NCBI GenBank assembly: GCA_010093995.1
Contig: ML992509.1
Location: 604,178 to 668,177 of the forward strand
DNA from: Elsinoe ampelina
Lineage: Eukaryota
Length of the DNA stretch: 64,000 bases
Direction: 5' to 3'
Position 1 is the first letter of the stretch. Each line of letters starts with the position of its first letter. Both the position numbers and the translations under genes were made by a program. The notes under the pieces are model-generated. The model was not told the DNA's origin and did no database searches. It saw nothing but the letters and a program-made list of their open reading frames with translations. Of the stretch, positions 23,684-27,547 are shown piece by piece.

Positions 23684-24690
23684 ATGGCCTCTCTACGAAT
23701 TGTTCAGCGAGCAGCGCGAGCTGTCCCTCGAATCTCGCGACCTTTATCGACCACCTCGGCGAGATGGAATGTCAACGATCGCAAGAATGATACTCAGGAA
23801 ACGTATGAGAAGATACAGAAAGAGAAGCCACTCAATCCGCACATGACCAACACCACATCGACCATCGCCAACGAGATGCCCAACATTGGCAAGGACGCGG
23901 TTCCCCCAGAGCTCATCACCAGCGTGGACCCAAACTTTGTTCCCAAAGACTCCGTCCCTGAGAACACTGAAAGGATGACGGGTGGTACTCAAGCGCCTGC
24001 ACCAACCGAGGGTGTCAATGCGGATCTCGATGTAGGTGAAATCGAAGGAGGATCTTTCCGTGTTGAGCCGTTGCGAAGAGTAGGCGAGGACGTACGGACG
24101 ATGCGGGCTAGACTTCTATGTTCGTCCACATACCGAGAAATAATCTTCCAAGTATTGGACAGACGCTGACTATCGTGCCTACAGATCAATGCCGGAAAAG
24201 GGGGACGCTAGAGAGCGATTTACTCCTCTCTACTTTTGCCGACGCCAACCTTCAACACATGTCTCAGGAGCAATTGCAGCAATTTGATCTTTTCCTTGAC
24301 GAGAACGATTGGGATATTTATTACTGGGCAACTCAAGAACCGTCTCCTACCTCTCAAGAATACGCCGAAGGCGCAGGACCTGATCTTGCCACAAAAGCGG
24401 CTCAAGGTAAAGCACCTCCTGAGTTTGCAGACCAACGCAAGCGAGAGCCTGCAACTGGCGAGTGGGCTCAGACTGTGGGTACCTTCAAGCCTGCATACCG
24501 ACCCGTACCAAAGAGATGGAAGGAGTCGGAGATTCTCAAGTTATTACGACAGCACGTGGTCGATCGCAGCGCAGGTGGCGTTTTGAATGAGGGTGTCAAG
24601 GACACAGAACGCACAAGAAACCAGGCTGGCCAGAGCAGTAGCGGTGGGGGTCTTGGTCGCATGCCAGACCTGAAGAACTTTGATGCGTAG
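23684..24690 (+). CDS. SDH5: Succinate dehydrogenase assembly factor 2 (Sdh5/Emi5)
   Basis: [24 protein letters not shown]...[12 protein letters not shown]. Intron ~24120-24185. Mitochondrial presequence-like N-terminus. Confidence 0.93.
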
Positions 24691-24914: not shown

Positions 24915-26413
24915 ATGTCGGCTCCTAGCAATACAACATCTGCTCCATCGCACCCAGATCCATCTGGTCCTGTACTAGCTCCGGCCCAGACCATGGCTGC
25001 TCTAGAGCGGACATCCACCCCAGCCCCAGCAGGACCGCAGACCATCGCGGGTCTTCAGCCATTAACCCCATCCATCGACAAGACGGCTCCCAAAGATGAT
25101 CATCCCATCACAGCTGCAACAGTACCCAAGATAGACCCGACTCCAGTACAAAACACGGCCACTACACCGGGCCTACCAGACCGCCATTCTGGAGCGACCC
25201 CGGCACCTCAAGTCGCCCCTGTCTCGGTGATTATTCCTGCATCGGCATCGTCAACCACGACGGTTATCACGGTTCCTCCTGAACCGGAGCACATCACCAT
25301 TGCTCCAACGATACCGCCGGTTCTTGCAGCCGCCCCCAAGGAGCAGCCACAACGTGTTACTGCCGAACCCAGTAAGGCCCACGAAGCACCTCATCATCCA
25401 GTCGAGCGAGTCGACACACTTGCCGATCTTCCTTCCCATACAGCACCACGATCCCGAAGGAACAGTGCCTCTGATTCGACACCAGCGACTAGACCGAGAC
25501 CATCAAGTCTTCCTATCCCTTCTCCTAGTCGTGCAGCAAGCAGTGGAGATCTACGCAGTGGCCAACCGAGTCCAATGATTCCGATCAATGCAGTGGAGTA
25601 GGTTCCGATACCCTGGTCTTATCAGTCGCTTACTAACCAGTTACAGAGTACTGGTGGCTTCTGTACATCTTCATCACAACGCAGCATCTCCTGCACACCA
25701 ACACGCCGATCCTTTGTCCCTGGTAAATTTATACGCTGGCAAGAACAAGAAGCTCTTCTCGATCCACCGACATTTACTAGTTACCAAGGTGCCATACTTC
25801 CACGAGATGTTCTCCCATGATGCAGCTCCTGGTGTCAGTCGGCTTACTTTTGAGAATCTGGACGAGTACGCCTTTGCTTTGTTCGTCCGCTAGCTGTACG
25901 GCGGACAGCTGCACGGCCCGAACGATTTTCATAGCTTCCAGCACTACCTTGGACTGTATGTGCTGGCCTTGAAGTTCAATGTCGAGAGTCTGCAGAACGA
26001 AGGTAAGCACAACCAACAGCGTCGATGTCATACCGATGCCCTAACACTTCACAGCGATTGACCTCTGCCGGCAATACTACCATCTGAACAGCATGACTGC
26101 ACCAGCCTACCGCATTGAGTACATTTACGCCTACACTTCGGAGCCAAATCACATGCGCAACTTTCTGGTGGCAACTGCTGCCTATCGCTCTCTCTGTGAA
26201 GCACCTTCGGCTCCTGGGGTCTATCTCAGTGACAGCATGAAGACATTGATGGCCAAGGAAGGTGATTTAGGTATTGACTTTGCAGAGTCGTTGATCAAGC
26301 TGAGCAAGAATGGGCTAGTGGATGTTCGCAAGGGAGATGCTTGCATCTTCCACGTGCACAGCGATGGAAAGGTCTGTCAGACAATTGGTCTTGAGCCGTA
26401 CCAGGATGCCTGA
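24915..26413 (+). CDS. BTB/POZ-domain protein with a Pro/Thr-rich N-terminus; one in-frame TAG at 25891-25893 (pseudogene or recoded)
   Basis: Introns ~25598-25646 and ~26002-26054. BTB region LVNLYAGKNKKLFSIHRHLLVTKVPYF...DEYAFALFVR*LYGGQL...YLGLYVLALKFNVESLQNE; the frame continues intact after the stop. Confidence 0.8.
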
Positions 26414-26629
26414 GCTGGAAGAGAAGGAAATGGCGAACGAAGGAAGCACGCATGAGGTAGTCCTTAGTACCTGAGAACCTAAGTACTTGTTCTCATACGC
26501 ATCGTTCTCCCTGTCCATTCATGGTGACACTGTCACTGATCAATATCTCCTGATGATAGATCGCTGGCATTCAAACATCGCTATCCCATATCCTATCTCC
26601 TTCCTTCCTCTCTAGCCCTCATCCACCTG

Positions 26630-27547
26630 TTAGATCAAATGCTTGGACCTGAAATACGCCCTGAGGTACACAATCTGCCACGCCCCCAGACCAACAAGCA
26701 TACCCATCGTCCCCAACGCGAACCACTTGACCCGCTCATTCGTGCTCTCATTCGTGTCCCTCAACTTCTGCTCCCTGATCTTGAGGTACTCCAGCTCCTC
26801 CACAACCTCGGCCACCATCTCCTCCATGCGCCTCAGGTCCGCCTCGACGGGCTTCAGTTTCTCCCCGGCCTGGATCGCGGACCAATCTTTCGCGTCGGCG
26901 CCGATGTCGACGTCCAGCTCGACGTGGCGGGTGGGGTCTTTGGCAATGTGTGCTGGGGGATGGTCAGTCTTGAGAGCGCAAAGGTCGTTGGGATTGGGGT
27001 CTGAGACTCGAGGGGAGGGGAAGGGGAAGGGGGTGAGAGGGGAGAGGAACTGGGGGAGGGGAATGATGGTCAGGTGTACGGGGGGGTGGGTTAGCGTACC
27101 AGCCGTGAGGATATTCTCGAAGCAGACGTCAAAGGCGCTGTCGGCGTGCGAGGTGAATGCGTAGCGGTTCTCGCCTGCCACGTCGCGGGGTTTGCCGTAC
27201 TCGTTGCCCACCGTGTCTTTGATGTGCATGTTGAGCATCATGCCGTCGCCGCGGGAGCCGGAGACGGTGGCGGTGACGACGACGAGTTGGCCGTTCTGGG
27301 AAGGGGGGAGTTAGCGTGGGAGGCGAGAGAGGGAGAGGTCGCGTGGAGGGGGTAGGGAGGCTGAGGGAGGGAGAGGAGGTAGGAGGTGGAGGAAAGGGTG
27401 ACAGGTGGAGGGGCGTACTTGGACAAAGTTCCGTATACAGCGCTCTTTCTCTTTTGATTCGTGGCCGGGGTGGGCTTGGATGTCGAATTTGAGGCCGAGG
27501 ACTGAGGGGAGGAGGGCTGAGAGCGCGAGAAGGGGGAGGAAGAACAT
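26630..27547 (-). CDS. ERV25: p24/EMP24-GP25L family cargo receptor Erv25
   Basis: Signal peptide, [41 protein letters not shown], transmembrane segment and [12 protein letters not shown] tail. Two C-rich introns ~26951-27099 and ~27296-27418. Confidence 0.93.

Follow-up and report, generated by a model that had tools for sequence, protein, structure and literature searches.

The window, a 64,000-nucleotide stretch of the Elsinoe ampelina genome, contains a conserved BTB gene with an in-frame UAG at codon 310, at the position of a conserved Trp. The stop is real, probably genus-wide, and masked in public annotations. Comparison with related sequences makes it likely that gene callers have hidden the same stop throughout the genus and that it is sometimes translated through; support for translation through the UAG, which comes from sequence conservation, is good although indirect.

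Structure of the BTB gene and its in-frame stop

The gene lies on the forward strand and was modelled with three exons, running from an ATG at 24915 to a TGA at 26411-26413 and giving 465 codons when spliced. Exon 1 (24915-25597, +, 227 codons) contains the ATG and encodes a Pro/Thr/Ser-rich, low-complexity N-terminus with no Pfam match. This N-terminus is identical to that of the annotated E. ampelina protein P0004, which has the same junction at intron 1 (25598-25646, +; 49 nt, GTAGGT...CTAAC...CAG). Exon 2 (25647-26002, +) encodes the BTB core and contains the stop, intron 2 (26003-26054, +; 52 nt, GTAAGC...CTAAC...CAG) is spliced in contigs from two further studies, X3 and X4, and exon 3 (26055-26413, +) encodes a conserved helical C-terminal part that ends at the TGA. 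A protein named for Elsinoe ampelina matches exon 3 at 100% identity, and the identities to E. australis and S. murrayae are 78-82%. In the relative L001 (1928-2620), intron 2 is missing and exons 2 and 3 form one frame.

The motif TTC GTC CGC TAG CTG TAC GGC occupies window positions 25882-25902, with the TAG at 25891-25893 (+) and its A at 25892. Codon 310 is the sole internal stop of the spliced model and is followed by 155 sense codons. With the stop read as X, the Pfam BTB profile PF00651 spans it in exon 2 (E 3.3e-6; 27.7 bits, cut-off 20.5). The profile match above the cut-off was accompanied by a BTB fold, modelled on the Trp-bearing relative P0007. Foldseek on the BTB model returned KBTBD4, KBTBD2, A55 and the SPOP BTB (E 1e-4 to 3e-3), and the Atlas clusters matched were all BTB. 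Trp76 lies within helix 67-77 of the P0007 model (pLDDT 92.8); as modelled, termination at codon 310 removes the end of the Trp helix and every later helix.

A total of 179 proteins were gathered, 135 of which span the stop position while 44 do not. The residue at this position is Trp in 120 of the 135, Tyr in 3, Arg in 2 and Gln, Cys and Phe in 1 each; the others are 6 gaps and 1 X, the latter being the window's own sequence. The codon is TGG in 8/8 related metagenome loci, which represent 6 distinct loci (L005/L006 and L007/L008 are near-twins), and the Sdh5 and emp24 neighbours of the gene are common to these loci where they are long enough. A preliminary description of this DNA had reported a single UAG at the conserved BTB Trp and an intact frame past it. 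Both observations were confirmed, and the codons past the stop carry no second lesion and are under purifying selection.

Upstream of the BTB gene is the last exon of an Sdh5 gene (24112-24690, +; Pfam PF03937), which has an ordinary TAG end and is syntenic in L001, L004, L007 and L008. The downstream neighbour, convergent with the BTB gene, is part of an emp24/p24 gene (26633-27310, -; Pfam PF01105) and is syntenic in 7/8 loci. A changed genetic code was rejected, as the TAG that closes the Sdh5 gene sits close to the ends of related genes, the difference being no more than a few codons in 2 of the 3 loci checked. As for a suppressor tRNA, no CUA anticodon was found among 9 ARAGORN calls (18 loci; 63 of 820 candidates scored, a thin check).

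An assembly error, which had been raised as a possible source of the stop, is not supported: two candidate-source DNA runs hold 1.00 of 201 sampled words, and two contigs agree. These contigs, of X3 and X4, cover codon 310 with 0 other letters; that of X3 matches 25647-26000 without a gap or other letter, and that of X4 extends only 28 letters to the left of codon 310. Nor is the suggested RIP-like origin of the TAG indicated, the TpA/ApT ratio being 0.69 for the gene and 0.59 for the window.

The E. ampelina genome has 47 BTB matches, with tandem clusters at C12:371600-398300, C9:180100-185100, C9:906000-910600, C6:1258500-1281200 and C1:2745300-2765000. The clustered family is expanded, probably fast-turning, and distinct from the single syntenic gene. 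The BTB paralogue L033 (C9, match 906088-906465, +) has an in-frame TGA at 1738-1740 in the equivalent helix (ISALL*YIYG), one position ahead of the aromatic residue; this TGA probably derived from CGA and may be a nonsense allele or a readthrough case.

A shared 18-residue gap in Elsinoe annotations

All 6 annotated Elsinoe/Sphaceloma orthologues found, from 5 species (E. ampelina, E. batatas, E. fawcettii, S. murrayae and two proteins of E. australis), are without the same 18 residues over the stop, a gap present in 0 of 129 other aligned homologues. Because the same gap occurs in all six annotations and covers the TAG in the E. ampelina DNA, the other Elsinoe species probably carry a stop at this codon as well; this is judged from protein records, the stop DNA having been read only in E. 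ampelina. The preliminary description had looked to orthologues for a conserved TAG with selection downstream. This comparison was borne out in that the gap is common to 6/6 annotations and selection acts downstream, in an indirect form that draws on protein records rather than on the DNA of the other species.

The segment left out by annotators is a 54-nt 'intron', GTTCGT...TAG, at 25881-25934 (+), which behaves as coding sequence. It is unspliced in X3 and X4, both of the RNA-type contigs that cover it, and has no CTRAY branch motif, whereas the true introns 1 and 2 have CTAAC 9 bases before their ends. Removing it deletes residues 73-90 of the P0007 model, parts of two core helices. Because it is unspliced, contains no CTRAY, would cost these helices and evolves as protein-coding sequence does, the segment is not considered a working intron. 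Most simply read, the sequences indicate that gene prediction has skipped over a stop in each Elsinoe genome; the same 18 residues are probably missing in error from six public protein records, which come from five species. Annotation errors of this type, in which a false intron is placed across an editable stop, have been documented, for example in CHE1 of Fusarium (PMC11169179).

A GT..AG 54-mer is also present in 3 of the 8 TGG loci (L002, L007 and L008), and P0008, the annotated relative nearest to two of them, which shares a 90% cluster with a protein matching L008 exon 3, retains the 18 residues. A 60-nt in-frame intron proposed earlier (25834-25893, +) found no support: it is unspliced in X3, contains no CTRAY and is used by 0 annotated orthologues.

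It is very unlikely that the 54-nt piece has turned into a genuine intron in Elsinoe, whether spliced constitutively or alternatively, with the annotated 447-aa protein minus 18 residues as its product. Such an intron would be in frame, bounded by GT..AG and called in 6/6 annotations; a minor spliced form would be masked in contigs, and FgBUD14 is described as having both editing and splicing over one stop (PMC11156358). However, intron 2 is spliced in the same two RNA-type contigs in which the 54 nt are retained, and the codons after the stop would go untranslated, yet their protein sequence is conserved. The missing CTRAY, unlike in both true introns, and the loss of parts of two core helices also argue against it.

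A search for shorter proteins gave 19 hits, among which no product ended at the stop or started just after it. Production of the protein in two pieces, with termination at the UAG and re-initiation at the adjacent CUG or a later AUG, would account for conservation on both sides of the stop with unedited RNA, and a CUG does follow the stop directly. That CUG is the ancestral Leu codon, however, and the domain would be split inside its core helix with loss of the Trp, and we regard this possibility as extremely unlikely.

Selection beyond the stop and age of the lesion

Comparison of the piece over the stop with 6 relatives gave pS values of 0.65-0.97 and pN values of 0.05-0.15, with 13-15 of 17 residues kept. 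For the 14 codons after the stop within the piece, 5-9 synonymous and 2-4 replacement differences were counted against the 6 relatives. In a neutral simulation, retention of 15/17 residues had P values of 0.04, 0.004 and <0.0001 at 0.2, 0.3 and 0.5 substitutions per site, respectively. Calibration pairs (n = 3) with 80, 86 and 91% protein identity had dS values of 1.51, 1.11 and 0.65, and downstream of the piece the identity of E. ampelina is 80-82% to S. murrayae and E. australis and 90% to E. fawcettii. Based on the dS of calibration pairs at matching identities, these sequences suggest that roughly 0.3-0.75 neutral changes per site have accumulated on the E. ampelina line since the Elsinoe splits. 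If the lesion is shared, the improbability of neutral retention would mean that the codons beyond the stop are still translated in frame. Overall, some form of recoding of the stop is probable. For selection beyond the stop to be informative, the stop must have the age that the annotations imply.

In a tree from which the 18-residue piece, L002, L003, L006, L008 and P0018 were left out, the five Elsinoe species formed a clade excluding the nearest TGG locus, L004 (support 83/91; 832 of 1000 bootstrap trees), and nesting of L004 within Elsinoe was not rejected (p-AU 0.11 and 0.26). A first tree left Elsinoe without resolution.

The age of the stop also bears on an alternative in which the TAG is a recent nonsense allele found only in E. 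ampelina, the gene is a young pseudogene, and the gap in the other species was copied by homology-guided annotation. The stop codon itself has been read only in E. ampelina, and conservation relative to outgroups is uninformative if the stop is young. The BTB family is large, a TGA interrupts the same helix in paralogue L033, and the cryptic GT..AG in some TGG relatives could be forced into an intron by a protein hint. However, the six gapped models vary in their starts and lengths (174, 440, 447, 447, 475 and 510 aa), and that of E. fawcettii is without the entire N-terminus, unlike the product of a lift-over; the gap is found in no non-Elsinoe model. Moreover, the gene has no RIP signature and no second lesion, and the TAG is present in the data of three studies, which may share one strain. 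We consider a recent allele of this kind unlikely.

RNA evidence and possible readthrough

X3, X7, X9 and X10 are guessed to be RNA runs and X4 is of uncertain kind; X3 and X4 splice intron 2. Codon 310 is covered by 2 of 4 contigs, as those of X7 and X8 do not reach it. No edited RNA was found, the X3 and X4 contigs both reading TAG; contigs drop rare variants, and the tissue is unstated. The first base of exon 2 is also where the X3 contig (1732 bases; window 25647-27430) begins; this contig probably extends into the convergent emp24 gene, and its depth of 383 is not to be taken as an expression level. Exon 1 is barely covered in X3, from which nothing follows. The position of this contig suggests that the BTB and emp24 3′ ends overlap, which could give rise to double-stranded RNA beyond the BTB gene.

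An RNA hairpin was predicted at 25885-25906 (+), with A25892 as the first base of an 8-nt loop, and was not significant. The 61-nt fold had a z of -0.59 and a P(unpaired) of 0.89 for A25892, windows of 81, 101 and 150 nt gave other folds, and L001, which has TGG, folds equally well. The U at -1 that had been put forward as fitting the editing preference is present, but it is forced by the UAG codon and so is not independent support; the +1 G is forced in the same way, and the +3 base is U rather than the preferred purine.

The main rival to editing is ribosomal readthrough of a genus-wide stop with the RNA unchanged, in which a near-cognate tRNA would insert Tyr, Gln or Lys at UAG-C and the small share of passes would set a low dose of full-length BTB protein. 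It requires no enzyme new to the class and fits the unedited RNA and all of the conservation results. A stop followed by C is the leakiest readthrough context, and a C directly follows this one. The 81- and 101-nt folds place a hairpin immediately 3′ of the stop, and Tyr and Gln occur at the position in 3 and 1 of the 135 homologues, respectively. Set against this are the strong preference for Trp (120/135) and the CTG TAC after the stop, Leu-Tyr codons that are ancestral and that L001 and L002 share, with no readthrough motif gained. In addition, TGA is leakier than TAG, returns Trp and was equally reachable from TGG, yet the codon is TAG. Readthrough, including its proposed role in dosage, is in our estimate somewhat unlikely.

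Putative A-to-I correction and candidate enzymes

TAG is the only single-change stop that A-to-I editing returns to Trp. Our best guess, which we hold tentatively, is a putative condition-specific A-to-I correction of the UAG to Trp, and as part of this explanation we infer that ribosomes cross the stop. A TGG>TAG change at the core Trp of a single-copy orthologous Myriangiales BTB gene, probably in the Elsinoe ancestor, would have left the gene off by default, with translation of the ordinary transcript ending at codon 310 to give a 309-aa product cut inside the BTB core helix. Under some condition (sexual stage, stress, virus infection), an adenosine deaminase would turn the UAG to UIG, which would be read as Trp, and the edited transcript would yield the 465-aa BTB protein. 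Candidate enzymes are Tad2-Tad3 with an extra cofactor or the genome's one OTT_1508-like deaminase.

Reports of editing across the genome are confined to Sordariomycetes and Pezizomycetes, with none detected in Aspergillus or Botrytis (PMC11156358; PMC7306014). Elsinoe ampelina is described as a Dothideomycete of the order Myriangiales (PMC8295512). Because this host is outside the reported editing classes and its DUF726 pair does not show the MV motif by a hand count, the Fusarium/Neurospora mechanism cannot simply be transferred to E. ampelina. Only two full DUF726 genes are present, L014 (C9:595667-599677) and L015 (C11:579235-583284). The MV motif was not seen in either (counted by hand, with no Ame1 alignment), and the shorter gene has KS in place of MV near the site on which Ame1 activity depends, ~30 residues upstream of the catalytic Ser when counted by hand with a one-residue offset. 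The sequences lean towards absence of a Sordariomycete-type Ame1 with the MV motif from the genome. The L014 DUF726 gene lies ~6 kb before the start of the window.

One OTT_1508 match with HAE and CxxC was found, at C5:1418228-1418404. The OTT_1508-like gene (L017:985-2367, -; C5 ~1417700-1419500) has HAE and CYLC motifs, and an apparent transposase remnant (L048:902-1294, by eye) lies ~8 kb from it. No C2H2 or Zn2Cys6 pattern was found in the 19 kb around the OTT_1508 gene (~9 kb on each side; an intron-split pattern would escape).

A second stop-corrected gene was not found in samples of kinase, WD40, MFS, methylase, Spo11 and BTB genes, which make up a small part of the gene set. TAG occurred in 10/137 kinase matches, and 10/10 looked intronic (20 stop-bearing kinase matches were inspected, including all 10 with TAG). 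A stop of any kind was found in 0/150 WD40, 0/10 MFS and 0/4 methylase matches. A gene-specific editor may act instead.

Discussion

No report of this gene, of editing in Elsinoe or of A-to-I editing in Dothideomycetes was found in the literature searched, which left subscription papers mostly outside. Which ascomycete classes edit mRNA is given as an open question in reviews (PMC11156358; PMC7306014). It is possible, although slightly less likely than not, that a UAG gate has been kept in at least five Elsinoe species and is opened by A-to-I editing, that this is the first case in Dothideomycetes and uses an enzyme system other than Tad2-Tad3-Ame1 or OLD-ZAO, and that more such genes lie behind false introns. 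Codon 310 provides a one-base test of editing in the Dothideomycetes, to which many plant pathogens belong. Editing of the codon would suggest that fungal mRNA editing has a further origin or a further cofactor; readthrough would make the site an unusual mid-domain recoding. A shared in-frame deletion among congeners over a conserved Trp could serve as a simple screen for hidden recoded genes.

The BTB gene looks like a PSC gene. The PSC genes PUK1, AMD1, RID, AMA1 and BUD14 of Fusarium graminearum/Neurospora are described as edited by Tad2-Tad3-Ame1, and they resemble it in having a UAG at a conserved Trp with the frame intact beyond, unedited RNA outside the permissive stage and a false intron in annotations (PMC11156358; PMC5496914). 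In contrast to their hosts, E. ampelina is a Dothideomycete with no sign of a Sordariomycete-type Ame1, editing was not seen in two contigs, and the E. ampelina RID-like and Spo11-like genes are without such a stop (by eye). A paper describing 71 PSC genes does not use the term 'BTB' in its main text, and the BTB gene is at most a candidate member of the Tad2-Tad3-Ame1 class.

OLD deaminases are reported to carry out site-specific UAG correction outside the sexual stage and outside Sordariomycetes. Within the OLD-ZAO module, an OTT_1508-like deaminase corrects UAG in adjacent zinc-finger genes, and the taxa named in the available commentary are Eurotiomycetes, Sordariomycetes and one basidiomycete, not Dothideomycetes (PMC12754623). 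OLD-ZAO and CHE1 of F. graminearum offer a likeness in their gene-specific, non-sexual UAG correction, with an annotation that hides the stop (PMC12754623; PMC11169179), and an OTT_1508 gene exists in the E. ampelina genome. By adjacency, however, the BTB gene falls outside OLD-ZAO: the target BTB gene is on C9 and the deaminase on C5, with no zinc-finger motif beside the deaminase.

Fungal programmed readthrough includes UGA CUA contexts that give peroxisomal extensions. The E. ampelina site is alike in that the stop is followed by C-U and no change to the RNA is necessary, and differs in that the stop is UAG and cuts the core of a domain; to our knowledge, the known fungal readthrough cases extend a complete protein. 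With regard to the protein itself, the BTB/POZ and BTB-BACK Cullin-3 adaptors (SPOP, KBTBD) differ from it in sequence (12-19% identity) and show TM values of 0.3-0.5, and it has no kelch or MATH domain. The likeness to these adaptors is by fold, through PF00651, the Atlas clusters and the Foldseek fold.
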